Shown piece after piece: positions 4,652 through 62,290 of a DNA stretch of 64,000 bases. Below the pieces are notes generated by a model. It did no database searches, had not been told where the DNA came from, and saw nothing but the letters and a program-made list of their open reading frames with translations. Both the position numbers and the translations under genes were made by a program. This DNA comes from a virus: the IMG/VR virus record IMGVR_UViG_3300045988_119718, positions 128,001 to 192,000 of that record; one strand, written 5' to 3'. Each line of letters begins with the position of its first letter. Positions within the stretch are counted from its first letter, which is position 1.

Positions 4652-5812
4652 TCATAAAGCTAAATTCTGATTACCTGATAAGAATCTTTTAGAATAGTAA
4701 TCTAAATTAAATTCTCTAGTATCTTTATCTAAATATTCTCTACTAATATACTTATCAAAACATTCTTTTTCAATATCATAGATGACTTTTCTAGATATAC
4801 ATTTATTGTATGAGTTAAATATGTATCTAGTTTCTAATGGGCATTCTGTGCAATATGAAACATGATTACACTGAATACATCTATCAATGTTTTCATTTAA
4901 AAGATTAGTATATAGATTAGTAAAATTAGACATTGATTTAGAATCAAACCCAGTAGAAATATTTCCTAGTACTAAATCATTATTATTATCTAATAATCCA
5001 TCTATTTCTTTTAAAAGTAAACATGGATAAATATCCCCATTAGGCACTACCATAAACATCTTTCCGATATATCTGCATTTATGGTCATAAATAAAATCAG
5101 GGTTTATAAATTTATTATAAATCATATATGTAAGATTATCCAAATCAAAATCATACTGATTATACAGCATATATATTTTATGCAGCTGATGTATAAAGAT
5201 AGTTTTAAACTCTTCAGTATTATAATATTTAGAGTATTCATCATTAAAAATAAAATAGTAAGATAACTTCTTACACCCTTGTTCTAGTGCATATTGAATA
5301 GAGTCAGCTAAATAACAAATATTGTCTTTAGTAACTGCTATAGCTATCATAACTTCATTATTATACTTAGAACAGCCTACTTTATCAACAATAGTAGACA
5401 ACTGTTTATCAGTAAGATGAGTTTGGGCTATTTCAGAAGCATGAATACCATCCCATGATATTTTAACTGATTCAGGAGAAATTATCTTTATTAAATCATT
5501 CATAATAAAGTTGTGATTAGTACCATTAGATACTATACCAATCTTAACTGTTGTATCTTTATATCGCTCAATCTTTTTTAACTCTTTGCATAGATTATAA
5601 AGCTCATTAGGATATATAGTTATCTCTCCCCCTAATAAGTTTATATATAACTTAGGGCCGATATTTAAGGTCTTTAAAAACTCTACCAGCTCTTTGCCTT
5701 TATTGAATACATTGTGCCTAGACCTAGAGTTATTAGTCTCAAAGCAATATTTACAATTCAAATTACAATAGTCATTAAATTTTATCCCTAAGAAATCAAT
5801 TTGCTCATACAT
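4652..5812 (-). CDS. radical SAM enzyme with C-terminal SPASM-type auxiliary Cys cluster (peptide-modifying maturase-like)
   Basis: N-terminal 'CNLNCKYC' (CxxxCxxC) and C-terminal 'CIQCNHVSYCTECP'. Overlaps the upstream gene by 8 nt. Confidence 0.8.
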   Translation of the reverse strand: MYEQIDFLGIKFNDYCNLNCKYCFETNNSRSRHNVFNKGKELVEFLKTLNIGPKLYINLLGGEITIYPNELYNLCKELKKIERYKDTTVKIGIVSNGTNHNFIMNDLIKIISPESVKISWDGIHASEIAQTHLTDKQLSTIVDKVGCSKYNNEVMIAIAVTKDNICYLADSIQYALEQGCKKLSYYFIFNDEYSKYYNTEEFKTIFIHQLHKIYMLYNQYDFDLDNLTYMIYNKFINPDFIYDHKCRYIGKMFMVVPNGDIYPCLLLKEIDGLLDNNNDLVLGNISTGFDSKSMSNFTNLYTNLLNENIDRCIQCNHVSYCTECPLETRYIFNSYNKCISRKVIYDIEKECFDKYISREYLDKDTREFNLDYYSKRFLSGNQNLAL

Positions 5813-6992
5813 TTTTCATACCTAATAGCTTAATAAAATTGCTTACTAATTCGGCTTCTTCATCATTTTTCTGTATTGCTTCTATATTATTAATTCTATT
5901 AAAAGTATAATTATCCATCTTAGTAGTGGAGATATCAGTAGATAATGCAAACTTCAAATCTTCTGGTGAAGTATTAATAATCTTACCATTTAAAATTTTT
6001 TCATTATTAATTGCAATAGTAGCATATTTTCTTAACAATACTGCATACTTAATAACTTTAGATCTATCATAATAAGATAATCCTCTAAGAAGAGTCGGCA
6101 TATTGGTAAGACCATCATTGAACAAGTCGATGATCTTGTTCAATAATTTTTTACAAGTTGTAATTCTTTCTGCTCTATTTGTATTACTGATAGAAAATAA
6201 TAAGTACATCAGCATAGTATCACAGAATCTGAGATAACCATAGTTATACTTCTTATATTGATAATCTCCTATTTCACTATATAAGAAATTATCAAGCTTA
6301 TTATACAAATCCTGAAGATCTATTTTAATTCTATTATCTTCTAAAAGTTGATTGATATTATGAATATAGAAGCATACCCAATCACAGAATTGGGAGTTAA
6401 TATTATCTTTATCACTAGAATACTCTAAAGTCTTATTATAATACTTTTTAATAGTATTCATGCATTTGGATGTAATATCTTCTTCTGACATAGAATTTGT
6501 AATAAAGTCTTTAGAGATACTGTCTATAAGAATCTTGTAAGCAATATAGTTATAATAAATAAATTTACTATAGTTTTTAGATTCATGAGATTCAAAATAT
6601 TTAATAAAGGTTTTCATATAAGAGAAATAAACATCTTTTTTATTAGAATCATTAAAATCTATAAATGCAATTAATAATGCTAAATAGTTTTCATCATCTA
6701 ATGCTTTAGTATTATGAATATATTCTTCTCCAATAAAATCTTTACTAATTATTTCAAATTCTTGAAGTAAAATTGGTTCATTTTTTAATGATTCTTCAAT
6801 AGAAGATTTAATATCAGAGTATACTTTCTTATTATCTTCATTTTCTATAAACAAAGAAGAATATTTAATATATTCTTCAAATGTAGTAAAAGAATTATAT
6901 TTATCAGATAGAGCGTTAAGTTTATCTATTACATCAGATACTTTATTCTCTAATATATAATTATAAATTCTTTCTGGTAAAAAATATATCAT
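5805..6992 (-). CDS. hypothetical alpha-helical protein inside the rSAM operon (candidate leader-binding, scaffold or peptidase partner)
   Basis: 395-aa ORF with RBS 'tggaggt'. Tightly packed between two rSAM genes. No motif recognised. Confidence 0.55.
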   Translation of the reverse strand: MIYFLPERIYNYILENKVSDVIDKLNALSDKYNSFTTFEEYIKYSSLFIENEDNKKVYSDIKSSIEESLKNEPILLQEFEIISKDFIGEEYIHNTKALDDENYLALLIAFIDFNDSNKKDVYFSYMKTFIKYFESHESKNYSKFIYYNYIAYKILIDSISKDFITNSMSEEDITSKCMNTIKKYYNKTLEYSSDKDNINSQFCDWVCFYIHNINQLLEDNRIKIDLQDLYNKLDNFLYSEIGDYQYKKYNYGYLRFCDTMLMYLLFSISNTNRAERITTCKKLLNKIIDLFNDGLTNMPTLLRGLSYYDRSKVIKYAVLLRKYATIAINNEKILNGKIINTSPEDLKFALSTDISTTKMDNYTFNRINNIEAIQKNDEEAELVSNFIKLLGMKNV

Positions 6993-6993
6993 A

Positions 6994-8028
6994 TTAAACC
7001 TCCATATCTACATTATTAACCTTATATAACCAATTCTTATATCGCATAATTATTTTATAAAGTTCTGCTAATTCTTCATGATTAAGACTTGCTAAATATT
7101 TAGTAATAAGATTATCATAAACTTTCATAAGTTTACATGTTTCTGGTAAATAATTATCTAACCATTTATCACCAAACTTTAGCATTCTTTCATATCTACA
7201 TCCACCATCGCAAAGGTAAAAATATTTACAATTTTCTATCTGACAATCTTTACTGGTACAACGCTTCTGTATTTTATCAAAGTCTTCATATTTCTGTTCA
7301 GTAAATGCGATAGAAGTGCATGATGACATAGTTTTATCTGTAAGATAAGACTGTTCTTTACCTGCTGCGCATGACTGCATTGGTGCTCTATTAATATATG
7401 CCATTATCTTATTAAGATTTTCTGTATATGGATGCTCTAATGTACCTTCAAAAGTACAATAAAGATTCTCTTCTAAATCTTTAAACCATTGATCGTCATG
7501 GTCTTCACCTCTAGCAATACAGTATTGACCATTAATATGAAACTCTTTATCTAATCTATGGAATAACTTATTAAGTCTAGGTATATCTTTTACATTAGCA
7601 TTATTAATTACAGTCTTAATATCAAAGTGGTCTAGTCCTTCAGATATAGCATAATTAATATTATTCAATACTCTATCGGCAATACTTCTACCAGAAGTAT
7701 CTACTCTAGAATCTTTAAATCCATCCCAAGAAATTTGTAATTCTATATGCCATTTCTTTTGGAACTTAATAAACTCTTTCCAATTAGCCATACTAGAAGT
7801 TATAACTTGAAAGTTCATTTGATCGTGATACTTTTCTAAGGTGTATTCCATTAAGTCTAATCTCATTAATGGTTCTCCACCAAAGAATACCACTCTATTT
7901 GGTTTATTTTGCTCTATACACTCATCTATATCTTTTTCTGTAAGACAATCATTATTATACTTGATATAACAATAATGGCATCTATTAGGACATTGATTGG
8001 TTAAAAATAAATATATTTCTTTATACAT
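6994..8028 (-). CDS. radical SAM/SPASM enzyme (likely true start MYKEIYLF…)
   Basis: 'CPNRCHYC' near the N-terminus and a SPASM-like 'CKYFYLCDGGCRYE' near the C-terminus. Its start overlaps the stop of the upstream precursor gene as TAATG. Confidence 0.8.
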   Translation of the reverse strand: MYKEIYLFLTNQCPNRCHYCYIKYNNDCLTEKDIDECIEQNKPNRVVFFGGEPLMRLDLMEYTLEKYHDQMNFQVITSSMANWKEFIKFQKKWHIELQISWDGFKDSRVDTSGRSIADRVLNNINYAISEGLDHFDIKTVINNANVKDIPRLNKLFHRLDKEFHINGQYCIARGEDHDDQWFKDLEENLYCTFEGTLEHPYTENLNKIMAYINRAPMQSCAAGKEQSYLTDKTMSSCTSIAFTEQKYEDFDKIQKRCTSKDCQIENCKYFYLCDGGCRYERMLKFGDKWLDNYLPETCKLMKVYDNLITKYLASLNHEELAELYKIIMRYKNWLYKVNNVDMEV

Positions 8029-8501
8029 TAGAATCCACCACCACATTTCTTATCATGACATGTACCACCATGGCATGATTGGCAAGATATTTGGCAAGTA
8101 GACTGACAAGATGCTTGACATACAAGTTTGCATGGGCCTGCCCAATAATCATCAGACTTAGAATTCATTTGCTGTAGTAAAAGTTTTGCTATATTATAAA
8201 TAATACCTATATCATTAGCTGTAATTATTTTTTGTTTTTGAACTTTATTGTTGATATCTTTTAATTGATTATAGTTTGCTGAAGTAGTTCTAGAAAGCTG
8301 TGTAATAGTTTTACTATAACCATTACCACCTTTTCTACTTATTTCGTTATCAGTAACAGCATTAATAGAATCTAATTCTGTAATATTTGTAAGCAAACAA
8401 TTTATCGTATTATTAAAGAAATCATTTGTAATGAAATGATCTTTAGCAGGAGAATCTGGTAAATAATATTTTACAGATTGTCTAATTACTTCTGTAGCCA
8501 T
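8028..8501 (-). CDS. Cys-rich precursor-like peptide B: ~127-aa leader plus 30-aa core LVCQASCQSTCQISCQSCHGGTCHDKKCGGGF
   Basis: Start MATEVIRQ… overlaps the stop of precursor A (TAATG). The C-terminal 30 aa are identical to precursor A and contain 8 Cys at 3-4 residue spacing. Confidence 0.6.
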   Translation of the reverse strand: MATEVIRQSVKYYLPDSPAKDHFITNDFFNNTINCLLTNITELDSINAVTDNEISRKGGNGYSKTITQLSRTTSANYNQLKDINNKVQKQKIITANDIGIIYNIAKLLLQQMNSKSDDYWAGPCKLVCQASCQSTCQISCQSCHGGTCHDKKCGGGF

Positions 8502-8911
8502 TAGAAACCACCCCCACATTTCTTATCATGACATGTACCACCATGGCATGATTGGCAAGATATTTGGCAAGTAGACTGACAAGATGCTTGACAGACTAAT
8601 CCACATGTACCATTGTTATTCCAATATTTCCAAGAATGTTCTTGCAATACATTGGAAATAGATTTACATAAATTATATATAGCTTTAGCATCATCTGCTT
8701 TAATAACATCACCTTGACTGATTAAGCTAATAATAGAATGAACAGTTTTAGGAACACCAATTCTAGAATATTCTATAATCTGTTTCTTTCTATATTCGTC
8801 TTTCTCTAATTCATCTATATTAGATAACATAGTCTCAATCATGTTATCATAAATAGTCTTACTAGAATTGACTAAATTATAGTGTATACCATTATTTACT
8901 ATCTTTTCCAT
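8501..8911 (-). CDS. Cys-rich precursor-like peptide A: ~106-aa leader plus the identical 30-aa core
   Basis: 136-aa ORF ending …NGTCGLVCQASCQSTCQISCQSCHGGTCHDKKCGGGF. Immediately downstream of an rSAM/SPASM gene, which it overlaps. Confidence 0.6.
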   Translation of the reverse strand: MEKIVNNGIHYNLVNSSKTIYDNMIETMLSNIDELEKDEYRKKQIIEYSRIGVPKTVHSIISLISQGDVIKADDAKAIYNLCKSISNVLQEHSWKYWNNNGTCGLVCQASCQSTCQISCQSCHGGTCHDKKCGGGF

Positions 8912-10265
8912 TATCTTCTACACCACCTTTATTATTCAATGAATATAAAATCATAGTCATAAGAATTTCAGATTTCTTTCTAAAGTATTCTTCAAATGTA
9001 GGGAATACATTATCAGAACCCAAATTATTAATCATTTCTTTAAGATGAATCAATCTAAGCTTTAATGCAAAAGTATTAGATAAATCCGCAGTATCCATAA
9101 TCATATCGATATACTTCTTAATCTCTAAATTAGTCTTAAGAATATTTAAGTATCTACTTCTAATATTAGTAGCATTAAGAATCTCAGCTTGCTTAATAAT
9201 AATTACATCGGTCATAATCTTATGAAGATCACAATAAGATTGTAAGACTTTATTCTCATCACCATTTTCTCTAAGGTTTTCTTCAGGGCAACCATTCTTA
9301 CAATTTCCTTTAGCTTTACAAGTTTCACATTCTTCTTTTTGATATACTGCTTGTTTTTCTTTTCTATCAGTATGGACTTTGGTTTCATCTACGTCAGTAT
9401 AGATATTACCAATCTTCTGTACTAATTTAATTTCATCCTTAGAAGTTGGTAATTGATGGCATGGATAGATATCCCCATTATAATCAATAGTACACCATTT
9501 ATTCAATCCAATAGGGCAAAGTAAATCATCAGATACTTCTGGTTCCATAACCTGTCTCATAAAGTCATCTATATTCTTAATAGCTATATTTCTCTTAGAA
9601 CCTTCTTCATTAAGTTTATCGACATACATATCCACTAATTCAATATAGTTTTCTTTATAGTCATTCAGTTGTTCTTCTGTCCACTCTACATCAGTTACTG
9701 GCATAGGACAAATAGAATCTATTCCTAAAGTATTTACTAAGTAATCTACACCATCATACATATACTTTGCATCTTCTGGTAAGATAGTCATTCTAGCTTC
9801 AATAAATACTTTCAATCCATTAGTAATAAGAATCTTTAAGTTCTTTACTACTTGATTCCATGAATTAGAACGGTTCTTATCATGAACATGTTTAATACCA
9901 TCAATAGATACTAATAAACCAATATTATTATCATCTACGTATTGAATGAAGTCTTTTGGCAAGAATGATAAGTTAGTAGTCATACCATAATCTACTAATC
10001 TATGATGCTTATTATTATCATCTATAACTGCTTTAATACATTCCCAATTCAATAATGGCTCTCCACCAAAGAAATTGACTTGGAACCTTCTATTAAAACC
10101 AGATAAATCATTATATGCCAGTCTCATAGCATCTACTGCTACTTCTGGCTTCATATATTTTTTATTTTTATCTTTTTCAAAACAATAGATACATTTAAAA
10201 TTACAATCATTAGTAATATCCAATGTGATAGAATCACAATCATAGACTTCTCTAAATGGTTTCAT
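8892..10265 (-). CDS. radical SAM/SPASM enzyme (probable start at the internal ATG MKPFREV…, strong RBS GGAGGA)
   Basis: 'CNFKCIYC' and a SPASM-like 'CETCKAKGNCKNGCPEE'. The track ORF extends to 10322, but the RBS 'ggaggaataatt-ATG' supports a start near 10265. Confidence 0.8.
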   Translation of the reverse strand: MKPFREVYDCDSITLDITNDCNFKCIYCFEKDKNKKYMKPEVAVDAMRLAYNDLSGFNRRFQVNFFGGEPLLNWECIKAVIDDNNKHHRLVDYGMTTNLSFLPKDFIQYVDDNNIGLLVSIDGIKHVHDKNRSNSWNQVVKNLKILITNGLKVFIEARMTILPEDAKYMYDGVDYLVNTLGIDSICPMPVTDVEWTEEQLNDYKENYIELVDMYVDKLNEEGSKRNIAIKNIDDFMRQVMEPEVSDDLLCPIGLNKWCTIDYNGDIYPCHQLPTSKDEIKLVQKIGNIYTDVDETKVHTDRKEKQAVYQKEECETCKAKGNCKNGCPEENLRENGDENKVLQSYCDLHKIMTDVIIIKQAEILNATNIRSRYLNILKTNLEIKKYIDMIMDTADLSNTFALKLRLIHLKEMINNLGSDNVFPTFEEYFRKKSEILMTMILYSLNNKGGVEDNGKDSK

Positions 10266-10350
10266 AATTATTCCTCCTAAAAAATAAATTATTATAATGT
10301 AAAAAAGATTATTAGTAGCCATATAAACGGCTACTAATATTTTCTACTAA

Positions 10351-10962: not shown

Positions 10963-11297
10963 TCTTTTCCCTTTCTTTTTGTTAATAGATTATATAAAGC
11001 ATTTTTCATAGCAGAATAAGAAGAATAAGTTTGTGTATAGATAGCATCTTTGTTTTCAACTGTAATAGTACTAATTTTAGACTTTTTATTGTAAGTTTTA
11101 TATTCAGTATTATTTACTTTTTTGAATAATGCATTAGGATAATTAAAGAATACATCACATGGATTCGTATTAATAATAAATTGATTTAGTGATAAAACGA
11201 TGTCATTTAGTGTAAGTTCATTATACTTAGATAGTATAAACTTAACCCAAACATAGTTATCATTATCATTCTTTACTTCAATATAGAAATATTTCAT
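10950..11297 (-). CDS. hypothetical protein
   Basis: 115-aa ORF. Confidence 0.45.
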   Translation of the reverse strand: MKYFYIEVKNDNDNYVWVKFILSKYNELTLNDIVLSLNQFIINTNPCDVFFNYPNALFKKVNNTEYKTYNKKSKISTITVENKDAIYTQTYSSYSAMKNALYNLLTKRKGKEWIE

Positions 11298-11337
11298 TAT
11301 TATTTATACCCCTAATCTATACACAAACTAAAATAAA

Positions 11338-12444
11338 TTATCTCATATTATTCATATCTAAAATATAGTTAATCACTGGAGCAATAGCAGCAGCTTTAGC
11401 TTCTGCTTTCTCTTCTTCTTCTTTTTTAACGTATTCTTCTGTTTTCCAGTTCTGAGGAATTGTAGTATCTTTATAAACTTCGTTTACAAATTTACCACCA
11501 TTGATAGTAATAGAAGCTGTATCTTTATTGGTTACACCAGAAAGTTCAATATCGAAAGTACCATTCTCAATCGTAATCTTAGCTGATTCAGTCCATTTAG
11601 TACTTGTTCCTGGAAGAGTTTCAGGAGCTGAGGAAGATTTATCATATTCTACAGCACCTACTACTTTACCAGTGAAGTCCTTACCAAAAGTAATTACTGG
11701 AGCAGCATTATAATACTTCTTTAATAATCCATAATAGCAGTCAAATGCTACTCTACGGAATCCATCAGTATTAGGTGCATTGATAATTGTATTACCTTTG
11801 CAAGTTAATCCACCATAGTTATTGGATACTGCATATGCACACTGAGTTCCTTTAGAAATATCTACAGTTACATCTTCTAATACTAATTCAGAATAGTTCT
11901 GAATAAACATTTTGCAATTTGCAAAGTTAGTAGTAAGAGTACCATTCTTAAAAGTAACTTTACAACCTTCCATAAGTCTAAATGCAATAGTCTGATATTT
12001 AACACTAGCACCTACTAATGGAAGTTTAGAAACATTTACGGTATGACCATTTAAATCAAATGTAATGTATCTATCTTGAGTATGGTCATTTTCTACACCA
12101 ACTTGAGTACCACAAGTATCAATATCTTCTAAAAGAGTAATTGTAGTTTCAGTCTTAGGTTTAGCTGCATTTACTGCTTCTTGGAAAGTAGCATATTTTA
12201 CACCATTAGATTCAATTACATATTTTACAGCTTCAGTAGCACTAAATTCAACAGTAGTATCTGATTCTGCTACAGTATAAGTCTCTTTATTTAAAGTACC
12301 AGCTTTATAGCCTTCACTAGCTACAATAGAAGCAATGAGTTCTTTACCAGTTTCTACAGTATCACCATCATGATAAGTTTTAGAATCTAAATCTGAAACT
12401 GTAATAACCTGATTAGCAGATTGAATAATTTTTAAAGTTGCCAT
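11338..12444 (-). CDS. tail-fibre-like protein with N-terminal Ig-like repeat domain
   Basis: The N-terminus 'KIIQSANQVITVSDLDSKTYHDGDTVETGKELIASIVASEGYKAGTLN' matches the repeat consensus of the family. Confidence 0.55.
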   Translation of the reverse strand: MATLKIIQSANQVITVSDLDSKTYHDGDTVETGKELIASIVASEGYKAGTLNKETYTVAESDTTVEFSATEAVKYVIESNGVKYATFQEAVNAAKPKTETTITLLEDIDTCGTQVGVENDHTQDRYITFDLNGHTVNVSKLPLVGASVKYQTIAFRLMEGCKVTFKNGTLTTNFANCKMFIQNYSELVLEDVTVDISKGTQCAYAVSNNYGGLTCKGNTIINAPNTDGFRRVAFDCYYGLLKKYYNAAPVITFGKDFTGKVVGAVEYDKSSSAPETLPGTSTKWTESAKITIENGTFDIELSGVTNKDTASITINGGKFVNEVYKDTTIPQNWKTEEYVKKEEEEKAEAKAAAIAPVINYILDMNNMR

Positions 12445-12464
12445 AATTTATAAATCCTTTCTTT

Positions 12465-12887
12465 TTAATAATCGGTTAAAGTAGGAGTTTTATTATTTAT
12501 TTCAGGAGAATATTTTATATAAAATCTGTCTATATAAGATTCACCACCACGAACACCAACGTACACCCTAATAGAGTATCGCTTATTCGGAGTTACACCA
12601 ATATATCCTAGAAATGAAATCGTCTCGCCATAATCACCACCACGGTACCATTGTTTGTTATTACTAAATACAGTCATACAAACTGGGTAATCCTCCTCGT
12701 GAGACGAACTAGCACTTGCATATACTTCAATCACATGTATACCATTAGGAATTGTGATAGTTCTAGTAATATCATCATTATAAGTATTTTGTTCATTTAC
12801 CAAATACCCTGTTGGTATGCTTACGGTTGCTGGGCTAGCCGTGAATGTTAGCCCCCCCCCAATTATACCTTTCATTGTTGTAGCCAT
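12465..12887 (-). CDS. small tail-associated protein with an in-frame poly-G tract (9 G = GGG codons); 'ON' member of a phase-variable paralogue pair
   Basis: MATTMKGIIGGGLTF… The homopolymer lies at codons 10-12. The paralogue at 31790..32201 has 10 G and is frameshifted. Confidence 0.55.
   Translation of the reverse strand: MATTMKGIIGGGLTFTASPATVSIPTGYLVNEQNTYNDDITRTITIPNGIHVIEVYASASSSHEEDYPVCMTVFSNNKQWYRGGDYGETISFLGYIGVTPNKRYSIRVYVGVRGGESYIDRFYIKYSPEINNKTPTLTDY
12852..12860 (-). repeat. homopolymeric G9 tract (C9 on the + strand) inside the CDS
   Basis: Seen directly as 'gccccccccc'. Confidence 0.9.
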
Positions 12888-12918
12888 ATACAACTACCTT
12901 CTTTCTTTTTAATCGTAT

Positions 12919-13674
12919 TTATGATACTATAGTGTATTGTGATGCAGATAATCCAGCACCATCGAATCCTGCTGGTGGATTCTTAATCTTAACATTTCTA
13001 AGTTTATGAGAATAGTTAAACATTTCATTCCAATGCTTGCATGATTTCATATCAATTACACCTTTAATGGTAGTAAGATTATAGCATTTATAGAACATCA
13101 AGACCATATCAGTTACTTTAGAAGTATCAAAATTAGATATGTTCAATGTGGTAAGATTATCACAGTTAGAGAACATAGAGGCCATACTTTCTACATTAGA
13201 AGTATCGAAGTTGGATAAGTCTAACGATGTAAGATTACGACAATCCCAAAACATACCTTCCATAGTATACACATTAGAAGTATCAAAGCTAGATACATCT
13301 AATGAAATAAGTTTAGAGCAGTTAGAGAACATAAATTCCATATCTATTGCATTAGAAGTATCGAAATTAGATACGTTTATTGAAGTGAGTTTAGGGTGAC
13401 CATAGGCATTTTTAAACATACCTTCCATAGTATATACTTTAGAAGTACTAAAATTAGATAAGTCTAATGAAGTAAGATTATCAGTGCAGTGACCAAACAT
13501 ATAGCTCATACTCATTACAAAACCATCACATGTAACTGTAGCTTGACCTGGGACTGATGTATCTATTTTATCCACACAGGATTTATCATCCCAATTATCA
13601 TTATACCATGGACTAGAACCTTTAGCTATAAAAATTTGATCTTTGAAGGCTGCATAGCTAACAGTAATAGTCAT
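12919..13674 (-). CDS. DUF285 / 'Liste_lipo_26' 26-residue LRR-like repeat protein (surface-binding module)
   Basis: At least 5 tandem repeats of 'LTSLDLSNFDTSNVxSMxxMFxxCxNL'. Confidence 0.65.
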   Translation of the reverse strand: MTITVSYAAFKDQIFIAKGSSPWYNDNWDDKSCVDKIDTSVPGQATVTCDGFVMSMSYMFGHCTDNLTSLDLSNFSTSKVYTMEGMFKNAYGHPKLTSINVSNFDTSNAIDMEFMFSNCSKLISLDVSSFDTSNVYTMEGMFWDCRNLTSLDLSNFDTSNVESMASMFSNCDNLTTLNISNFDTSKVTDMVLMFYKCYNLTTIKGVIDMKSCKHWNEMFNYSHKLRNVKIKNPPAGFDGAGLSASQYTIVS

Positions 13675-13685
13675 ATCACTATTAA

Positions 13686-14708
13686 TTACCCCCCCCCACT
13701 AACGTTCAATGCTCCTGGTTTATACCCACTATCAGCTATAACTTCAGCTTCATATGTAGTTCCCCTTGGACAAGTAAAGGTAGAAGTATGATCGGTTCCT
13801 CCATTCTTTTGAGGTGTATAAACGTGAATAGTCTGGTTAGCAGACTGAACAATAGTTACTGTAGCATTAGCTACTGTTGCAGCTTTAGCACTAATAATCA
13901 TATTGCTATTAAATGTACCACCCTTGGTATTTGGTGTACCTGCTATATAATTATTAGCAGCTATAACTTCTACTTCATAAGTAGTACCTACAGAGCAGGT
14001 GAATGATGAAGTGTGGTCAGTACCACCAGATTTTCTAGGTGTATATACATGGATAGTCTGATTATCACTTTGAACTATAGTTATTTTAGCATAGGATATA
14101 GCAGGGTTAGCATTAATAGACATATCACTATTAATTGTACCATTCTCATTAACATTTAATGACCCTGCTGTATAACCATTTTCAGCTATAACTTCAGCTT
14201 CATATGTAGTTCCCCTTGGACAAGTAAATGTAGAGGTATGATCTGTTCCACCAGACTTCTTAGGAGTATACACATGAATAGTTTGATTAGCAGATTGGGT
14301 AATAGTTACAGTAGCATTAGATTTTGTAGCAGAAGTAGCATTGATAGTTTTATTTTTAGTAAATGTACCACTTCTGCTAATATTTAGTGTTCCTGCCTTA
14401 TAACTATTTTCAGCTATAACTTCAGCTTCATAAGTAGTTCCTGCTAGACAGGTAAAGGTAGAAGTATAATCTATACCACCAATCTTTTTCGGTACATATA
14501 CATGAATAGTTTGATTATCTGACTGATTAATAGTAATTGTAATATTCTTTTTTTCATTATGAGTTTTCTTATAAAGGTCATCTATTAGATCTTGTAATTT
14601 CTTCCAAGTAGGGTCATCTTTAGAGATTCTTTTTAGAAGAATATTTTGAAGAGAAGCATCTAAATCTTCTAATCTTATTCTTCTAATTTCCTTTTTGTTA
14701 TCATTCAT
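13686..14708 (-). CDS. tail-fibre-like protein with 4 tandem Ig-like repeats; ends GGG-stop inside a G9 tract
   Basis: Four repeats of 'QSANQTIHVYTPKKSGGTDHTSTFTCPRGTTYEAEVIAENGYTAGSLN'. Confidence 0.65.
   Translation of the reverse strand: MNDNKKEIRRIRLEDLDASLQNILLKRISKDDPTWKKLQDLIDDLYKKTHNEKKNITITINQSDNQTIHVYVPKKIGGIDYTSTFTCLAGTTYEAEVIAENSYKAGTLNISRSGTFTKNKTINATSATKSNATVTITQSANQTIHVYTPKKSGGTDHTSTFTCPRGTTYEAEVIAENGYTAGSLNVNENGTINSDMSINANPAISYAKITIVQSDNQTIHVYTPRKSGGTDHTSSFTCSVGTTYEVEVIAANNYIAGTPNTKGGTFNSNMIISAKAATVANATVTIVQSANQTIHVYTPQKNGGTDHTSTFTCPRGTTYEAEVIADSGYKPGALNVSGGG
13689..13697 (-). repeat. homopolymeric G9 tract immediately before the stop codon; a +1 G would fuse the gene in frame to the downstream DUF285 gene
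   Basis: 'taccccccccact' on the + strand. Hand translation of the 10-G variant reads GGGVINSDMTITVSYAAF…, in frame with the start of 12919..13674. Confidence 0.85.
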
Positions 14709-14719
14709 AATATCACCTA

Positions 14720-15742
14720 TTATGAAACTCTATACCAAGCTGCTAATACTGCACCATATGGATTATTTGGTAATGGAGTAGATTTACAATTTGGTGATAA
14801 AGTTGAAGAGATAGTATGTCTATGAGCACCATCAGTAGATGTATTAGGTAAAACATCATCCTTGTCAGATTTTCCGCAGCCTAAATTTTTATTACTACTG
14901 TCATACACCCCCCATTTGCATCTATCAGGCCAATGCTCACCAAATACGGTTCCATGATGATGATCGCCGGTTGTATTAGTTGAACTACCGTTATGACTAT
15001 GCGGAGGCAAATTAGCCTCTGTAAACTTTAATGTGCTACTACCAGTCTTAGTAGTTATATCTGAAGTAGAATTCTTAATATTAACTTCCTCTACACTAGG
15101 ACTACCAATCTTTACATATGCATCACTAATTCTTACCCAATGTGTTCCTGGATATTCTGTACTAGGATTTACATTATAAGCATAGAATATAACTCTGCCT
15201 ACAGCTGGTACACCACTTACATCATCACTAGTCATTACTCTCTTAAATTTGGTATTATTTATATTACCATTACTAGCTCGAATGTATAATTTTCCATCTG
15301 GTTGAGAGATAAATAATTGTGTAGAATAATTTGTGTCTTTATCATAAGGCATATTTATTAATTGACCAGAACTAGCAGGTTGATTAGAAATAGTAGGTCT
15401 ATTGTAATTTGAAATATACATGCCTTGACTATTCCAATCAGCATCACTTGTTCCAGGATTATAGTTATCTTCTAATTTATGGAATGCTTCCCATACTTCA
15501 GTTTTCTTAACAAATTGATCAGTTATATTACCTAAATTATCTGCAATAAAATTTAGCTTTTTTACTAATTCATCATAACTATCTTTAGTTACTGTATTCT
15601 TAAATAGCTCTTGTAATGATGGAGCTAATTCTTCAAAGGTGATCTTATTTTCATTATCAACTTCAGCCATTAAAAAACCTCCAATCTTATTGATTCTAAT
15701 AGGTTTACGCCTATAGGTTACTAGTATGTTAATGTGCTCCAT
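14720..15742 (-). CDS. hypothetical tail-associated protein
   Basis: 340-aa ORF, first gene of the minus-strand block after the divergent intergenic region. Confidence 0.5.
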   Translation of the reverse strand: MEHINILVTYRRKPIRINKIGGFLMAEVDNENKITFEELAPSLQELFKNTVTKDSYDELVKKLNFIADNLGNITDQFVKKTEVWEAFHKLEDNYNPGTSDADWNSQGMYISNYNRPTISNQPASSGQLINMPYDKDTNYSTQLFISQPDGKLYIRASNGNINNTKFKRVMTSDDVSGVPAVGRVIFYAYNVNPSTEYPGTHWVRISDAYVKIGSPSVEEVNIKNSTSDITTKTGSSTLKFTEANLPPHSHNGSSTNTTGDHHHGTVFGEHWPDRCKWGVYDSSNKNLGCGKSDKDDVLPNTSTDGAHRHTISSTLSPNCKSTPLPNNPYGAVLAAWYRVS

Positions 15743-15749
15743 TTTGCTT

Positions 15750-15790
15750 CGACATTACATTAAATATTATAAATACAAAATGGGGTGTTA
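15750..15790 (+). promoter_or_regulatory. putative sigma-A-like promoter in a 53-nt divergent intergenic region (TTGCTT…TATTAT)
   Basis: 'ttgcttcgacattacattaaatattat' sits upstream of the + gene at 15796. This is speculative. Confidence 0.25.
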
Positions 15791-15795
15791 AAAAA

Positions 15796-16752
15796 ATGAA
15801 TAAAGATAGTAAAAAATTTCATCTTTTATTAGTTCTGATTCCTATTTTTTGCTTTATTATAATTTCAGATATATTTGTATCTGATATAAGAGCTATAAAA
15901 CAAGATACATCAGAAAATATACAGACACTAGAAGAAAAGAAAACTGAATCTATCCATTATATAGTTGATAATAGAATTAGACAAGCCAGATTGCAAAATG
16001 CTTATATAGAAAGTGCTTTTAAATCTTATATAGCAGATTATGATACATCTCAATTACAAAAAGAAATGAACTCTGATGTATTGGATAATAAAATTATAAA
16101 TATACTTTCTAATATAATCATTTATGATACAAAAATAACAAGTATTTTTGAAACACATTATTCGGATCATATCTTGTTTATTAGTAATAAGAATGGTATA
16201 ATTAATATATGCAATTTATCTTCTAATAATCCAGAGATAATGTTTACTAATTGGGATGATTATATTGCTAAGAAGAATAATACCCAACTTACTTCTTCTG
16301 CTATAGATAAGCTTATTAATAAAGAAGAATCTGTTTTAGTATGGGAATCTAGTATAGCTACTAAAAATAATATACTCAATACAGAGTATACTACTTCTTC
16401 TGAAGAAACTATAGATAAGATTATACAGACTGATAATAGTTTTGAATATAGATATTATAATATTCTTGTACCTACTTATGTAAATATAAATAACCAAGAT
16501 GATACTTATGATTTCATAATAGTAAGAGAAATAAACTTATATAAAACTTTAGAACCACTTAGCTATAATATAAATAAGTATGATACGATAATAGAAGATT
16601 ATAAACATGAAATGAGTAACTTGCTATACATAACTATTCTTTTCTCTATTTCAATTACCATCTCGTTGTCTATCAGTATAATCATTGGGGTTCTTAAAAC
16701 CAATAATTATATAAAATATAAATTTAAGTTTAAGAAAGATGGTGATAAATAA
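15796..16752 (+). CDS. membrane protein (N- and C-terminal TM segments)
   Basis: 'LLLVLIPIFCFIIISDIFV' and 'LLYITILFSISITISLSISIIIGVL'. Confidence 0.5.
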   Translation: MNKDSKKFHLLLVLIPIFCFIIISDIFVSDIRAIKQDTSENIQTLEEKKTESIHYIVDNRIRQARLQNAYIESAFKSYIADYDTSQLQKEMNSDVLDNKIINILSNIIIYDTKITSIFETHYSDHILFISNKNGIINICNLSSNNPEIMFTNWDDYIAKKNNTQLTSSAIDKLINKEESVLVWESSIATKNNILNTEYTTSSEETIDKIIQTDNSFEYRYYNILVPTYVNINNQDDTYDFIIVREINLYKTLEPLSYNINKYDTIIEDYKHEMSNLLYITILFSISITISLSISIIIGVLKTNNYIKYKFKFKKDGDK

Positions 16753-23393: not shown

Positions 23394-24773
23394 TTATTTA
23401 CCATCGAAGTCTGCTGCCATAGTTGCAAGAATCTGTAAAGGCATACCCATTGTGTAGTCATCATTAATAGCTACACATTGTACTGCCAGAATAGAACCAT
23501 AATTAATTGTAGGATTACGATTAATCAATACATTAATACCAGAAGTATCGATGATATTTTGAATAATATCTCTAATACGTTTATCCTCTTTCAGTAATCC
23601 TTGCTTATATCTCATATATGCTGTATTATATGAAATATTATAAGTTCTTACTAAAATATTAATTACAGTCTGTTGAAGTAATTCCAATAATGTAAAATAA
23701 GATAATGTAACCTGATCTACTCTAAGTTTAGGGTCGGGAACAATAACTGATCTAGATGTAAATCCACATCTACCACCAATCAGTCTTTTAATAACACCAT
23801 TCTTATCTTTGCAGATATTAATTACTTCAGTATACAGCTCCAGATATCTCTGTTGAAGATTCCACAATAGTACATTTCTATGTTTTGGAATTCTGTAAAT
23901 AGACAATGTGTCATCATTAATCTTAGCTGCTAACTTAGCCATCATATTATAGATACCATTGGTTTTTTCATATGTAAATCTACCATCTCTTCTATCAAAT
24001 GGTCTAAGAGCTGTAGAATACACTGGAATACTATGAATAAAGATTTTATCTCTATTCTCTAAGATATCTTGATAATAATCAGGTTTCTTATTTTTATTCT
24101 TCTTATGAAAATATTCTAGGATTTCATCAAATCTATGATAAAATTCAATCAATCCAATTCCTTTATACTTTTCATCTAACTTAGTCTTTCTAGTAGACCT
24201 CTTAGCTGTAGATTTAATAATTTTAGAAGAATACTTTTGTACTGGTTTACCATTTTCATCGAGATCAATAATTGGTTCTACAATAGAAGCAAACTGATCT
24301 TTACCAATATAGCTTTCCAATACATAGAATAAATTCGGATGAATAATTGGATATCCTTCTTTAAGAGTAATCCAACCAGTCATCTCAAAATCTTCACCTA
24401 CATAGATTACTCTGGAATGACAATATGGGCAGATCATTCCTTCATAATTCTTCCCTTGTGTTCTTTTGCATTTACAAGAATATCTATCTGTAAATGCATC
24501 AGGGTCTTGCATAGTTTTTGTAAACTTGGATGAGAAAATAGAATTATCGCTTTTTAATCCTACATCAATAGCTTTCTTATCATCCTCAGGTTCATCAATA
24601 ATAAACCCTTTTCCCGATATCAGGTCTTTTGCTTTCTCTTCATCTAGATTTAATCGTAACAACCTAGTTTGGAAAGTAAACTTCTTTGATACTGGATAAT
24701 TAACGGTTAAGTTTAATTCCATATTACTCTCCTTCTCTTTAAAAACAAATAAAAAAGAATGAGTCAAGCTCAT
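23394..24773 (-). CDS. rpoC: RNAP beta-prime N-terminal fragment, exon 1 (Zn finger to catalytic AADFDG)
   Basis: 'CKCKRTQGKNYEGMICPYCHSRV' (Zn ribbon), 'LRPFDRRDGRF', 'INRNPTINYGSILAVQ…AADFDG' then an in-frame stop because of the intron. Confidence 0.8.
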   Translation of the reverse strand: MSLTHSFLFVFKEKESNMELNLTVNYPVSKKFTFQTRLLRLNLDEEKAKDLISGKGFIIDEPEDDKKAIDVGLKSDNSIFSSKFTKTMQDPDAFTDRYSCKCKRTQGKNYEGMICPYCHSRVIYVGEDFEMTGWITLKEGYPIIHPNLFYVLESYIGKDQFASIVEPIIDLDENGKPVQKYSSKIIKSTAKRSTRKTKLDEKYKGIGLIEFYHRFDEILEYFHKKNKNKKPDYYQDILENRDKIFIHSIPVYSTALRPFDRRDGRFTYEKTNGIYNMMAKLAAKINDDTLSIYRIPKHRNVLLWNLQQRYLELYTEVINICKDKNGVIKRLIGGRCGFTSRSVIVPDPKLRVDQVTLSYFTLLELLQQTVINILVRTYNISYNTAYMRYKQGLLKEDKRIRDIIQNIIDTSGINVLINRNPTINYGSILAVQCVAINDDYTMGMPLQILATMAADFDGK

Positions 24774-26755: not shown

Positions 26756-28012
26756 TCACTTCTTTAATCCGAATGCTTTCCATACATCTATTTCATGAAG
26801 TTTAACTGTAGAGTCATGGAATGCCTTTAATGCTTTAAGCTTTAATGCTGATGCTACTTGTGGCATAGCAACACCAATATCTTTAAATCCCGCTCTATAG
26901 AATAGATTTCCTGCACATACATTACAAATCTTATTAGGTTCTTTATATTCACATAAAGAAGAGAATCTCATTCTAACTGTTTTACCTAAATATTTATCTT
27001 TATTAGTAGAATTCAATTCTATAAGTTTATTTCCTTCTACTATATAAGAATACATCATAAGTTTAATATTATACTTATCTAATGTAATTTCTATAGTTCT
27101 CTTAGTACCACAATCAGTTCCTTTAGGAGCTAAAGTAAGATGCTGAAATGCTCTTAATAATAGTTTTTCATTGTACCCGCCTTCAGGGGTCTTCTTAGAT
27201 CTAGAATATGGGCCAGCTGCTAATGCTTTAGCTAATTTAGAATAATCATCTCTAGAAATACCATCAATGTAACTTGACATAGCTACGTCATAACCCTTAG
27301 TAGGGTCTGGGTCTTTAATAGCACCTTTCATTACAAAGATATTTTTAAAGTTATTAGCAAAAGAACCTTTAGCTTTGGAATCATACATATCCATAGATAT
27401 ATCATCTTTAAGTTCTTTTTTAGCATAGTCTAATAATTCTTTTTCTATCTTATCCGCAGCATACATATTTCTTTCTGGATCTGCTAATTCATCTGCATAT
27501 TTCTTTTCTAATTGTTTTTTCATTTTATCAATCTTATAAGAAATAGTAAGCATGTTTGTAGTAAATCCAGAGCATAGTATATTACAATAAGGCTGGAATT
27601 TCTGCTGTCTCATTAAATATCTTTTTAATGCAGACAATGGTAATCTATCTTCCATAATAGCATATGAAATCTGATCATTCATATCGCCTAATACATCTTT
27701 ATTTATAGGCTTATTGATATAATGGAATAAATCAAATAAGTCTTGTTCTATAAAACACTTATTGAACCACCATCTACCTAAAGTAGTAGTAAAAGTATTT
27801 TTATTCTTCTTATTACCAATACCATAAGAATTAGGTGGAATAGTAATAATATCATATGTATTATACTTTGGTGCTTTACCATTTAAAGTACCAAAAGTTT
27901 CCATAAGTTTAGAAAGAGATTCTACATCTTTTTGAGATAAATTTAAAAAATAATCTACTTCATCTTTGTTTGTAATCTTTCTAGCAACACGTTTGTTAGT
28001 AGATACTGCCAT
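26756..28012 (-). CDS. rpoC: RNAP beta-prime fragment containing the bridge helix and the start of the trigger loop
   Basis: 'KTPEGGYNEKLLLRAFQHLTLAPKGTDCGT' matches '[28 protein letters not shown]'. 'CNVCAGNLFYRAGFKDIGVAMPQVASAL' matches '[30 protein letters not shown]'. Confidence 0.75.
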   Translation of the reverse strand: MAVSTNKRVARKITNKDEVDYFLNLSQKDVESLSKLMETFGTLNGKAPKYNTYDIITIPPNSYGIGNKKNKNTFTTTLGRWWFNKCFIEQDLFDLFHYINKPINKDVLGDMNDQISYAIMEDRLPLSALKRYLMRQQKFQPYCNILCSGFTTNMLTISYKIDKMKKQLEKKYADELADPERNMYAADKIEKELLDYAKKELKDDISMDMYDSKAKGSFANNFKNIFVMKGAIKDPDPTKGYDVAMSSYIDGISRDDYSKLAKALAAGPYSRSKKTPEGGYNEKLLLRAFQHLTLAPKGTDCGTKRTIEITLDKYNIKLMMYSYIVEGNKLIELNSTNKDKYLGKTVRMRFSSLCEYKEPNKICNVCAGNLFYRAGFKDIGVAMPQVASALKLKALKAFHDSTVKLHEIDVWKAFGLKK

Positions 28013-28015
28013 TTA

Positions 28016-29068
28016 TTAGCTCACCACCTTTTTATATATTCTACCTTTATAAACATTAGAGGCAACTATACCATTTAATCTATTTTTTATATTGCCTCTA
28101 TCTTTTTCAACATAATTATTAGCTCTAAGATATTTATTTAACCCTCTATATTTTCCTATAAATTCATTAGTGGCTTCGTCATATACTTCAAATTCAAGAT
28201 TATACCTTCTATTATTAGATTGCTCTTCTTGTGTTGCCCATGTACAATTTTCAGGAGAATAGTCTTTATTTACATCTATTCTATCCATAGTTGTATTTAT
28301 TAATCCATGTTTATCAGCAAATTCTTTAAAAGAGTTCCAATTATCTAAAAAATAATTATGGAAATCATGCCATCTATCACAAACTTTTATACCTCTCCCG
28401 CCATATAACTTGTAACGATTATTAGATGGATTATAACGTTGCATCATACCTCTCCATCTTTTATAAAAAGCTCTATATGAAGGATCAGTTCTATCCTCGA
28501 TTTCGTTGTAAATTAAATGAGAATATTCATCATGCTTAGTTCCATGCCTTTTACAAAAATTACTGTAATATATTTCTTTTGTATATCCGCAAATTTTACA
28601 TTTAGCTAAAAATCTAGGCATATTATTTTTATATCCTAAAAATTTAATTAATACCATATCTTCAATAGTTTCTCCGACTTTTTCTTTATAATAATCTTCT
28701 TCACAATTTAGCCTATTGTGAAAATAATTATATTTTATAAAATTACTTTTTAATACTTTTTTTATATGCCCACATTTAGTGCATTGAATATTGCAGTATT
28801 GCTCATTACGATCTGTATACTCATCTAAAAGCTCTTTAAACTTATAATCAGTTCTAACTACATTTTTCAAAAAATCTTCATTGCAAGTATCTAGCGAATG
28901 CTTATAATGATATAACGTAATACTCTGCTTTGTTATATGTTTAATATGACCGCATTTAGTGCATTGAATAGTATAAACAGGGGCATAATGTTTATTTCTT
29001 CCATCATACGATATAATTTGGTAATCACCGATTATTTCTCCGACTAAATCTGAATAATTAGTTTTCAT
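28016..29068 (-). CDS. free-standing HNH-family homing endonuclease-like protein (three Zn-ribbon modules plus a C-terminal 'IDVNKDYSPENCTWATQEEQSNN' block)
   Basis: Three repeats of 'CTKCGHIK…SNF'. The C-terminal block is typical of phage HNH/AP2-type homing endonucleases. Strong RBS 'aaaaggag'. Immediately adjacent to the intron-like element. Confidence 0.55.
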   Translation of the reverse strand: MKTNYSDLVGEIIGDYQIISYDGRNKHYAPVYTIQCTKCGHIKHITKQSITLYHYKHSLDTCNEDFLKNVVRTDYKFKELLDEYTDRNEQYCNIQCTKCGHIKKVLKSNFIKYNYFHNRLNCEEDYYKEKVGETIEDMVLIKFLGYKNNMPRFLAKCKICGYTKEIYYSNFCKRHGTKHDEYSHLIYNEIEDRTDPSYRAFYKRWRGMMQRYNPSNNRYKLYGGRGIKVCDRWHDFHNYFLDNWNSFKEFADKHGLINTTMDRIDVNKDYSPENCTWATQEEQSNNRRYNLEFEVYDEATNEFIGKYRGLNKYLRANNYVEKDRGNIKNRLNGIVASNVYKGRIYKKVVS

Positions 29069-31789: not shown

Positions 31790-32201
31790 TTAATAATCTG
31801 TAACAGTAGGAGGTATTTTATTTATTTCAGAAGACCAAGACATAACGACACTAACACCACCAACTTCTTCACCAAAGTCGGATTCGTATGTAAGTTGTAA
31901 CTCATATGTTTTTTTAGGTGTCACACCAACATAGCTAATACTAGTAGCTGAGTCACCATAACCAGTAACAGATGCCCAGATATTACTAGAACCACCAAGC
32001 TCGCCTTTATACGCACCTGATTGAGATTCAGCATCAATATCACATTTAATAACCCTTACTGATTCTGGTGGAATAAAACTAAATGATGTTATACTATCAG
32101 TGCTTTCAAACCTACTATCACTAGTTATTTGAGCTGTTGCGGGGCTAGCACTAAATACTACTACCCCCCCCCCGTATAGTTCCTTTTAAAGTTGTTGTCA
32201 T
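31790..32201 (-). pseudogene. frameshifted ('OFF') paralogue of 12465..12887; the ATG with strong RBS reads 16 codons to a stop because the poly-G tract has 10 G, while a 9-G version encodes a ~137-aa protein ending …KIPPTVTDY
   Basis: Hand translation with 9 G gives MTTTLKGTIRGGVVVFSASPATAQI…VGVTPKKTYELQLTYE…KIPPTVTDY*, which parallels MATTMKGIIGGGLTFTASPATVSI…IGVTPNKRYSIRVYVG…KTPTLTDY*. Confidence 0.55.
32164..32173 (-). repeat. homopolymeric G10 tract (C10 on the + strand)
   Basis: 'ctaccccccccccgtat'. Confidence 0.9.
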
Positions 32202-32341: not shown

Positions 32342-33742
32342 CTATTGCTTATATGGTTTATATCCATTATTGGTCTTAAACCAAATAATCATATCCCCAA
32401 TCATATCTTTATAGTTACCATATACTTCTGGGCATTTACAAATCATATCAGAAGGCAAAGATACAGATTCTGGCTTGATATAAGAATTTATATTATCAGA
32501 TATAGTTGTAGTACCATCTGTAGTAACTCCACATTTAGCGATACCACCATATACTGTAGCACCAATTACACTACCATTTACAGTCTTACCACCAACTATC
32601 TTACCATTGGTGATAGTACACTTCATACTAGTACCACCTTTAGTAATACCATTTTGAATTATATACGGAATATCATTAATCTTACCCGTAGCAGTACCAC
32701 CAACTAAAGTTCCTCCAGTAATAGTACCACCATATGCAATATCACCAATTACTATAGCACCAGTAGTAACCATATCTTTGCCAGATCTAGTTCCTCCTAC
32801 TACAGTAGATTTCTCTATAACTGGATTGATTACAGTTCCATCATATGCTTTAGAGCCAACTACATTACAATCAGTAGCAACTATAGTAGCATTACAAGAT
32901 TCTACTATACATTTAGACATAATGGTTTTAGTACTATCATTACAATCACAAGTACAATTACCCTGACTAATAATAGTGTACTTTTCCATCTTACCACTCA
33001 TTATCTTACCAGTAGTAATAGTGCCTCCAATTACTTTAGCATTTGCTACTGTAATGAAGTTATTTAATGAGTTTACACCAGTAGCACAGCCATCTACAAT
33101 AATACATTGCTTATCATCTGCAACGCCTTTAGTGATAGTACCTGAATAGATATTACCATCTTCATCTATCGTAGCATCAGTAATAACAATAGCGTTTACT
33201 AAGCCTGCTACAGTAACACCACTAGAATGAGCATTAAGAATAGTGCTATCTTCATCAGCATGCTCTACATATGGCTGAATATCTCTAATGTTAGAAGTTC
33301 TAATATCTTCTACTACTGAAGAATAGTTAGTAGAAGCGTCTACTCTAATAATATAATCATTTACTCCAGAACAGCAATCACAAGAGCAATTAGAATTAGA
33401 GTTTACTTTACCAATTTTAGTAATTACTCCTACTAAAGTATTAAGTTCTCCATTAGCTAAGTATTGTACTTTGTATCTTTTTCCTTTTTCTAAAGCGTAA
33501 GTTTTAGACGTTCCATCTGAATAGTCTATAGTAATATCAATAGAATAATTAGCTTTAGCAGATACATTAGTAATCATCAAAGTAGCTCTTTGTAATTTCT
33601 CTACAGCATGATTGATATCATATGGCTGACAACAATCACAATTATGGATATTAGATAAATTATAAGAATTTTGAAATTGCTCAGTATAATGACCACAATA
33701 GGTGTCTAATGGGAATTCACCTTCACTATAATGAATAGGCAT
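32342..33742 (-). CDS. beta-helix-like repeat protein with three 'NCxCDCC' cysteine clusters (virion fibre or spike candidate)
   Basis: Gly/Thr/Ile-rich repeats such as 'GGTITTGKI', 'GGTITGGTLVGGTATGKI', 'GGKTVNGSVIGATVYGGIAKCGV'. Clusters 'HNCDCCQ', 'SNCSCDCCSG' and 'GNCTCDCND'. Confidence 0.5.
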   Translation of the reverse strand: MPIHYSEGEFPLDTYCGHYTEQFQNSYNLSNIHNCDCCQPYDINHAVEKLQRATLMITNVSAKANYSIDITIDYSDGTSKTYALEKGKRYKVQYLANGELNTLVGVITKIGKVNSNSNCSCDCCSGVNDYIIRVDASTNYSSVVEDIRTSNIRDIQPYVEHADEDSTILNAHSSGVTVAGLVNAIVITDATIDEDGNIYSGTITKGVADDKQCIIVDGCATGVNSLNNFITVANAKVIGGTITTGKIMSGKMEKYTIISQGNCTCDCNDSTKTIMSKCIVESCNATIVATDCNVVGSKAYDGTVINPVIEKSTVVGGTRSGKDMVTTGAIVIGDIAYGGTITGGTLVGGTATGKINDIPYIIQNGITKGGTSMKCTITNGKIVGGKTVNGSVIGATVYGGIAKCGVTTDGTTTISDNINSYIKPESVSLPSDMICKCPEVYGNYKDMIGDMIIWFKTNNGYKPYKQ

Positions 33743-62235: not shown

Positions 62236-62290
62236 AGGGAAAGGGGGATGGGGGTTCTAGGGGGTAGGGGGGGGAAGGGAACCTTTTTCT
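62236..62290 (+). other. G-rich island with G-quadruplex potential (GGG/GGGGG/GGGGG/GGGGG/GGGGGGGG/GGG)
   Basis: 'ggagggaaagggggatgggggttctagggggtaggggggggaagggaacc' flanked by 'tccctc…' pyrimidine tracts. Extreme for a ~28% GC genome. Confidence 0.6.

Follow-up and report, generated by a model that had tools for sequence, protein, structure and literature searches.

The sequence analysed here, called the window throughout, is a 64,000-nucleotide stretch (positions 128,001 to 192,000) of the IMG/VR virus record IMGVR_UViG_3300045988_119718, with a GC content of 29%. Three runs of nine or ten G residues are found in it: two lie near the start of a pair of small paralogous genes, copy A and copy B, whose product is referred to as the knob on grounds given below, and the third forms the end of a gene for a repeat-containing fibre protein. 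Two of the tracts had been reported in a preliminary description of this DNA and both are real, but the third tract, at 13689-13697, and the portable cassette discussed below had been overlooked. The elements concerned are as follows, with coordinates counted within the window and ON and OFF denoting a downstream region that is in or out of frame with its start.

13686..14708, minus strand: fibre protein of 340 amino acids (aa) with four repeats (…TITQSxNQTIHVYTP…GYxAGTLNV), ending …LNVSGGG* inside tract 3, as read from the sequence
13689..13697, minus strand: poly-G tract 3, 9 G, the last three codons of the 340-aa fibre
12919..13674, minus strand: DUF285/BspA-type leucine-rich repeat (LRR) open reading frame (ORF), 251 aa; Pfam PF03382, E 1.8e-35, 121.7 bits against a cut-off of 25
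12465..12887, minus strand: copy A, knob gene, 140 aa from ATG; ON
12852..12860, minus strand: poly-G tract 1, 9 G, codons 10-12 of copy A; a C-run on the plus strand
31790..32201, minus strand: copy B, paralogous knob gene, OFF in the window; hmmsearch E 9.5e-32; locus L049 has an identical gene, annotated at 136 aa
32164..32173, minus strand: poly-G tract 2, 10 G, in copy B, as read from the sequence

The consequences of tract length for the reading frame were obtained by in silico translation of each tract at 8-12 G, over which range a change of ±1 G switches the product between full-length and truncated forms. Copy A opens with the leader MATTMKGII, followed by GGG and LTFTASPAT..., and ends in TPTLTDY. 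With 9 G it is in frame (ON), giving 142 aa from a TTG or 140 aa from an ATG, of which the ATG is probably the true start because the conserved leader points there; the gene had been described as intact with 9 G, which holds, and as 142 aa long, which should probably be corrected to 140. Copy B has the ribosome-binding site (RBS) AAGGAGG and an ATG at 32201, from which only 16 codons are read (MTTTLKGTIRGGGSSI*), and its body frame (31790-32163) is open for 123 codons. As previously described, removal of a single G restores a complete homologue: at 9 or 12 G, copy B yields a 136/137-aa protein that ends in ...PPTVTDY and is 31% identical to copy A. No family members beyond these two copies were recovered in a six-frame hidden Markov model search of the window.

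At tract 3, the 9 G of the window bring the fibre to its stop codon, and at 10 G (or 7 G) translation in silico reads through VINSD into the DUF285 ORF to give a 596-aa fusion, with a junction peptide, …LNVSGGGVINSDMTITVSY…, that occurs only in the fused product. The ORF belongs to the DUF285/BspA-type LRR family, its PF03382 score lying above the gathering cut-off. Tract 3 probably gates DUF285 as a distal domain, because the first residues of the ORF, MTITVSYAAF, continue the inter-repeat linker of the fibre, and the junction is homologous to that of fused relatives (…GGGVINSDKTINATSAVKRAQIF…).

Runs of at least nine C or G are expected about 0.004 times in a window of 29% GC, and three were seen, all of them G on the coding strand, so a chance origin is excluded. 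GGG is also the rarest glycine codon (7.5%), with a probability of about 4e-4 for three in succession. All three tracts (9, 10, and 9 G) are runs of at least 7 G inside coding sequence, of the type found in Fletchervirus phages. Tract lengths were compared with those of near-identical genomes (loci with the prefix L).

Copy A: window, 9 G, ON; L044 and L045, 9 G; L053, L054, L056, and L057, 10 G, OFF, with the same flanks
Copy B: window, 10 G, OFF; L049, 9 G, ON (called as 136 aa); L047 and L050, 10 G; L048, 11 G
Tract 3: window, 9 G, unfused; L045, L056, and L057, 9 G; L044, 8 G

Flank identity over the three polymorphic tracts was 99.7-100%, and the flanks of copy B were identical at 300/300 bases upstream and 400/400 downstream wherever a locus reaches that far. 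Polymorphism in length among otherwise identical genomes, as known from Fletchervirus, is therefore present at all three tracts, and both states of every tract occur naturally. The OFF form of copy A (10 G) was seen in four other samples, and sample ERZ27229797 shows the opposite of the window's two states, copy A being OFF and copy B being ON. In L046, a T-to-G change beside the run of copy B produces an 11-G run in the same phase. A check for assembly error at the 10 G of copy B had been proposed; the same length was found in L047 and L050 and other lengths in L049 and L048, and because 10 G recurs and other lengths appear with identical flanks in other samples, this call is not an isolated assembly error. 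Five contigs begin or end inside a tract, which fits either unresolved heterogeneity or a drop in coverage. Some strains also differ by an additional knob paralogue between DUF285 and copy A (L053/L054 832-839 against window 12893-12919; 8 G versus 7 G, both OFF), which indicates gain or loss of cassettes between near-identical genomes.

Homologues of copy A form 88 protein clusters, all metagenomic and without annotation, and a profile search of 1.8 billion proteins returned 314 clusters at 50% identity, in which the family is either stand-alone (~110-145 aa) or the C-terminus of longer proteins. The called N-termini of the 88 clusters reflect the tract: 32 have the leader MxTTxKGxx followed by 2-5 glycines in frame, 18 start "MGGG…" from a TTG or GTG inside the tract, 3 are in an alternative frame, and 33 begin at an internal methionine. 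DNA was fetched for 59 loci, and an N-terminal tract of 8-12 G was present in 33 copies (29 distinct-flank groups; window plus L007-L057), with 12 in frame, 18 carrying one G too many, and 3 carrying two too many; the mode was 10 G. The excess of copies one G above the ON length may reflect an insertion bias, selection for the OFF state, or leaky +1 decoding. Relatives hold several paralogues per genome, and a single 227-kb contig has at least five. The downstream frame, of 115-138 codons, is still open in nearly all OFF copies (P ~2.7e-5 by chance for a 123-codon frame), the ratio of nonsynonymous to synonymous substitution rates (dN/dS) is 0.2-0.6, and the RBS, ATG, and leader are conserved in the stand-alone genes.

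The knob protein has conserved termini (Gn-LTFSASPAT and PEINNKTPTxTDY) and a variable middle. Modelling by AlphaFold2 with the family alignment (pLDDT 84.8) left residues 1-16, including the glycine run, disordered, followed by an eight-strand beta-sandwich, a predicted TNF/C1q-like jelly roll resembling the heads of fibres and spikes. From this predicted fold, the pattern of conserved ends and variable middle, the C-terminal position on fibres in relatives, and the tail operon context, we infer that the protein would serve as a distal receptor-binding knob.

Homologues of the fibre are either truncated at 339-342 aa or fused at 460-549 aa, the truncated form being represented by eight clusters that end in LNVSGGG, GGGN, GGGGN, GGGG, or GGGSI. 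Locus L059 has the same junction at 10 G and encodes a 549-aa fibre-DUF285 protein (…LNVSGGGVINSDKTINATSAVKRAQIF…), and L058, a syntenic genome of 259,867 bp, has 7 G, and its fibre protein, of 467 aa, includes a fused knob from the copy A family. These two are more diverged relatives, unlike the near-identical genomes at 8-9 G. The fibre junction of L012 is fused at 6 G. Relatives of 45-50% GC carry a 136-aa repeat protein joined to a knob via …LNVN-A-GG-R-INSDMTFSASGA…, a junction that 7 G keep in frame and 6 or 8 G truncate. Several relatives have K or E instead of M directly after INSD; in these, the tract is the only route by which the distal domain can be made.

Two further arrangements were observed among relatives. 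L052, a contig of 49% GC from a metagenome-assembled genome (CAVBQN010000003.1, binned as Fusicatenibacter saccharivorans), contains a 136-aa repeat protein, a 7-G tract leading to a stop, and a knob; its second knob gene, with the leader MKSGTFTNNTSFTATAAQ, lacks a poly-G tract and resembles a cassette locked against switching. The Fusicatenibacter bin, which belongs to the Lachnospiraceae, is a single genome-collection match and concerns this distant relative, not the phage of the window. A fourth type of poly-G junction, …TINISGVIV-G9-11-NIYSSPTT…, which is absent from the window, was found at 9 G in L011 (8441-8449) and L013 (5911-5919), at 11 G in L014 (8665-8675), and at 10 G in L042 (5835-5844).

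We consider it likely that each of the three G runs works as a slipped-strand contingency locus and gates alternative distal domains of tail fibres. The frame logic, conservation of the tracts, length polymorphism, and natural ON and OFF alleles of all three are in silico observations, and the 9/10/11 G alleles with identical flanks support the earlier proposal of poly-G phase variation in which one paralogue is ON and the other OFF. Under such a mechanism, the homopolymer would gain or lose G by slipped-strand mispairing during replication of the phage DNA, and each change in length would shift the downstream domain into or out of frame. In copies A and B, a TNF/C1q-like knob of ~125 aa would be toggled just past the 9-residue leader, and tract 3 would set whether the 340-aa fibre stops at GGG* or bears a distal DUF285 LRR domain (a knob in relatives). 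The common cassette would read: start codon plus 9-aa leader, or fibre repeat; Gn; (V)INSD/LTF-SASPAT; and a variable distal domain ending …TPxxTDY. Switching would take place within one population and the products would be incorporated into virions and bind receptors, so that a lysate would hold subpopulations with differing combinations of fibre tips, amounting to bet-hedging on host receptors.

A wider proposal, which we put forward tentatively, is that poly-G tract, linker, and distal domain make up a portable combinatorial host-range cassette that has spread horizontally between unrelated lineages of gut phages (jumbo phages of 29-32% GC and others of 45-50% GC). With a separate G tract in front of each of several alternative tips (TNF-like knobs, DUF285 LRR), a burst could contain up to 2^n types of virion. 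Slippage by the phage RNA polymerase (RNAP) or the ribosome on 9-12 G may add leakiness to the OFF states on top of switching at the DNA level, and RNAP slippage at one G above the ON length might permit low-level decoding, making expression graded and not binary.

Decoding could also be the whole explanation: at a slippery G run, RNAP slippage or a ribosomal -1/+1 shift would turn a constant small share of the output of an apparently OFF template into the full-length or fused form. Any X XXY YYZ heptamer is matched by 9-10 consecutive G, slipping by -1 immediately ahead of the TAA of tract 3 at 9 G leads exactly into the fusion frame, the commonest state (18/33) is one G above the ON length, as if tolerated or useful, and the phage encodes its own multisubunit RNAP. 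Such programmed recoding is nonetheless unlikely, as the shift that would be needed varies (phases 0, +1, and +2) between copies with identical flanks, copy B being seen with 9, 10, or 11 G and tract 3 with 8 or 9 G, whereas programming would hold the phase constant; genuine in-frame alleles also occur frequently. RNA folding downstream of the tracts was not significant (z +0.7, -1.7, and -1.7), and the combination of conserved phase and downstream stimulatory structure that marks programmed -1/+1 frameshifting was not found. It is highly improbable that all true tracts are in frame and the OFF states are errors of sequencing or assembly. Errors are common in homopolymers, a number of contigs break at the tracts, the T-to-G change in L046 lies beside the run, and an error is conceivable for any single length call, but copy B has 10 G in the window and in two other assemblies, and OFF states recur in dozens of assemblies from different assemblers and samples. 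An error in the consensus is improbable at tens-fold coverage, and would leave unexplained the conservation of the tracts against codon bias in genomes of 29-50% GC.

Two thirds of the assembled copies are out of frame, and one (L012, 5003) carries an extra frameshift, as might be expected if the OFF copies were redundant paralogues in decay and the G runs mere mutational hot spots. Little weight can be given to this idea, given the open downstream frames of nearly all OFF copies, a dN/dS below 1, the existence of ON alleles with identical flanks, and the conserved RBS and leader. The conserved ends might instead allow recombination to swap a variable knob onto the fibre gene, in the manner of silent pilin cassettes, with the poly-G tract incidental or a recombination hot spot; the conserved termini around a variable middle, the occurrence of the knob family, in syntenic genomes, as separate genes and as fusions to the fibre at one and the same junction, and the insertion of an extra paralogue in some strains would all suit such donor cassettes. 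The stand-alone genes look expressed, however, with a strong RBS, ATG, and conserved leader, and a role as donors in place of switching appears very doubtful, although donor function is compatible with slipped-strand contingency loci and does not exclude them.

The preliminary description had considered such switches only rarely reported for host-range genes of phages; they are rare, but there is a clear precedent in the Fletchervirus phages of Campylobacter. According to PMC8713573 and PMC12633550, these have tracts of 7-11 G in genes for receptor-binding proteins (RBPs) (Sørensen et al. 2021, Cell Rep 35:109214), and each genome carries several alternative RBPs, some of them phase-variable, giving phenotypically mixed populations. 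Poly-G tracts in BPP-1 and PB1-like phages are cited in PMC12633550, where contingency loci in T-even phages (T2/T4) are also proposed. The window resembles Fletchervirus in having G tracts inside tail genes with frame switching by ±1 G, the RBP role here being a predicted one. It differs in that the queries tried against 50,697 phage records revealed no sequence homology, making it an analogue and not a homologue; in belonging to an AR9/PBS1-like jumbo lineage with a TNF-like knob family and a conserved 9-aa leader; in that one tract would gate the fusion of a C-terminal domain and not the expression of a whole gene; and in that its cassette is common to unrelated phages of 29-50% GC. Bacterial contingency loci (poly-G/C tracts in surface genes of Campylobacter, Haemophilus, and Neisseria) share the slipped-strand mispairing within an ORF, the reversible frameshift, and the bet-hedging. 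The T-even loci are short (at least 6 nt) A/T-type repeats spread over all gene classes and under-represented in tail fibres (PMC12633550). The window phage, by comparison, has long G runs exclusively in the fibre-tip genes of an AT-rich genome.

Heads of the TNF/C1q type are trimeric jelly-roll beta-sandwiches with eight to ten strands and about 120-140 aa. Those of PRD1 P5, the BclA C-terminal domain, the tail fibres of cyanophages A4 and A-1(L), and the Chlamydia Pgp3 C-domain have at most 15% identity to the knob, which in the window phage is encoded as a separate small gene and whose likeness in fold is a predicted one. Programmed frameshifts add C-terminal domains to phage structural proteins, as in lambda G/GT and in frameshift-added Ig-like domains. 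Tract 3 is similar in giving a short and a C-terminally extended product from one locus, but lambda-type sites have one conserved phase and a fixed ratio, whereas at tract 3 the phase varies between near-identical genomes and true in-frame alleles exist. Diversity-generating retroelements (DGRs; BPP-1 Mtd) and invertible tail-fibre segments (Mu G, P1 C) diversify fibre tips within a phage population, as cited in PMC12823448; these work by retro-mutagenesis or site-specific inversion, and the window phage would do so by homopolymer slippage. Neither a reverse transcriptase nor an invertase was seen in the vicinity of the fibre and knob genes, and no description of a poly-G-gated knob cassette was found in the literature searched.

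The minus-strand operon around copy A consists, in order, of the Gp10_C-like baseplate/tail protein, the 340-aa repeat fibre, DUF285, copy A, a 368-aa fibre-like protein, a 115-aa ORF, and an amidase. The neighbours of the knob genes not yet listed are these.

14720..15742, minus strand: Gp10_C-like baseplate/tail protein, heading the fibre cluster; Pfam PF21939, E 3.8e-6; phrog_5717 tail protein, E 3.3e-16
11338..12444, minus strand: 368-aa fibre-like protein directly downstream of copy A, opening with the fibre repeat (IIQSANQVITV…EGYKAGTLN); CBM_35_2 match weak
32342..33742, minus strand: 466-aa Cys-cluster protein upstream of copy B, without family match; CxCxCC clusters NCDCCQP, NCSCDCCSG, and NCTCDCND

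The genes lie in a tail/baseplate operon (Gp10_C-like, phrog_5717), and the knob genes had earlier been designated tail-associated. They had also been placed directly downstream of fibre- or adhesin-like genes; for copy B this needs a small correction, since the 140 nt between it and the 466-aa gene contain a 34-aa ORF that is called in the assemblies of relatives, and the fibre-like nature ascribed to the 466-aa protein is unproven. Searches of Pfam and PHROGs gave no family for the knob, the 466-aa protein, or the 368-aa protein, the CBM_35_2 match of the last being weak. Synteny of the 368-aa protein is kept in L044, L051, and L058. This protein and a 1035-aa protein (35505-38612, minus strand) carry the linker and repeat of the 340-aa fibre (SISASPAT…TITQSEHQT; IIQSANQVITV…EGYKAGTLN), and several fibre-like proteins therefore share one attachment/repeat module. 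A scan of 11000-16000 for promoters and terminators gave results at chance level.

The window also encodes a split multisubunit RNAP beta/beta' (phrog_2987 and phrog_2962), with an HNH endonuclease gene directly downstream of one of the RNAP genes.

23394-24773, 26756-28012, and 28016-29068, minus strand: split RNAP beta/beta' genes; ~33% identity to Bacillus AR9/PBS1 and Staphylococcus jumbo phages

For an RNAP subunit, this identity extends over 95-97% of the protein, and a 252,690-bp metagenomic contig carries a near-identical sequence. On the basis of the split RNAP genes and of the length of this contig, set against the genome of ~250 kb that marks the group, the phage is an AR9/PBS1-like (phiKZ-related) jumbo phage without a close cultured relative. 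Among cultured phages only the RNAP subunit reaches relatives: neither the 4.5-kb cluster (by megablast) nor copy A or the 1035-aa protein (both by tblastn) had a match in the 50,697 records of INPHARED. The host is probably a low-GC Firmicute; an endolysin search gave distant cyanophage matches only and no clue to the host. Sample names and record labels, from which alone the origin is drawn, suggest the human gut metagenome.

Two further features of the window lie outside the fibre and knob genes. A G-rich island at 62215-62300 (plus strand), in an AT-rich intergenic stretch (GGAGGGAAAGGGGGATGGGGGTTCTAGGGGGTAGGGGGGGGAAGGG), contains at least five G runs including G8, has a G-quadruplex-like look, and bears an inverted repeat (CTTTCCCTC/GAGGGAAAG) on its flanks; it may be an origin, a packaging site, or a regulatory site. 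A cluster of radical-SAM ORFs (4652-10322, minus strand) adjoins the fibre and lysis genes, with matches confirmed at 4652-5812, at 8892-10322 (with a SPASM domain), and in a 344-350-aa ORF at 6994-8046, and with 5805-6992 as a putative member. Its products may carry out a phage-encoded radical-SAM/SPASM thioether maturation of a structural protein.

The present findings extend poly-G phase variation of phage RBPs, with the receptor-binding role predicted here, beyond the Campylobacter phages to another lineage and protein family, and point to a new use of the switch in which a distal domain is attached to or omitted from a fibre. If the tracts switch as proposed, a single genotype of a jumbo phage would be a mixture of particles with differing fibre tips. 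This would bear on genome-based host prediction, on models of phage-bacterium coexistence in the gut, and on the "frameshifted" or "truncated" fibre genes of metagenome annotation, two thirds of these genes being mis-called at present. The largest gap in what is known of uncultured gut phages is their host range, which is also the chief obstacle to the therapeutic use of phages. Should the cassette also prove portable, homopolymer slippage would be a general strategy of tail-fibre diversification in the human gut, alongside DGRs and invertible segments.
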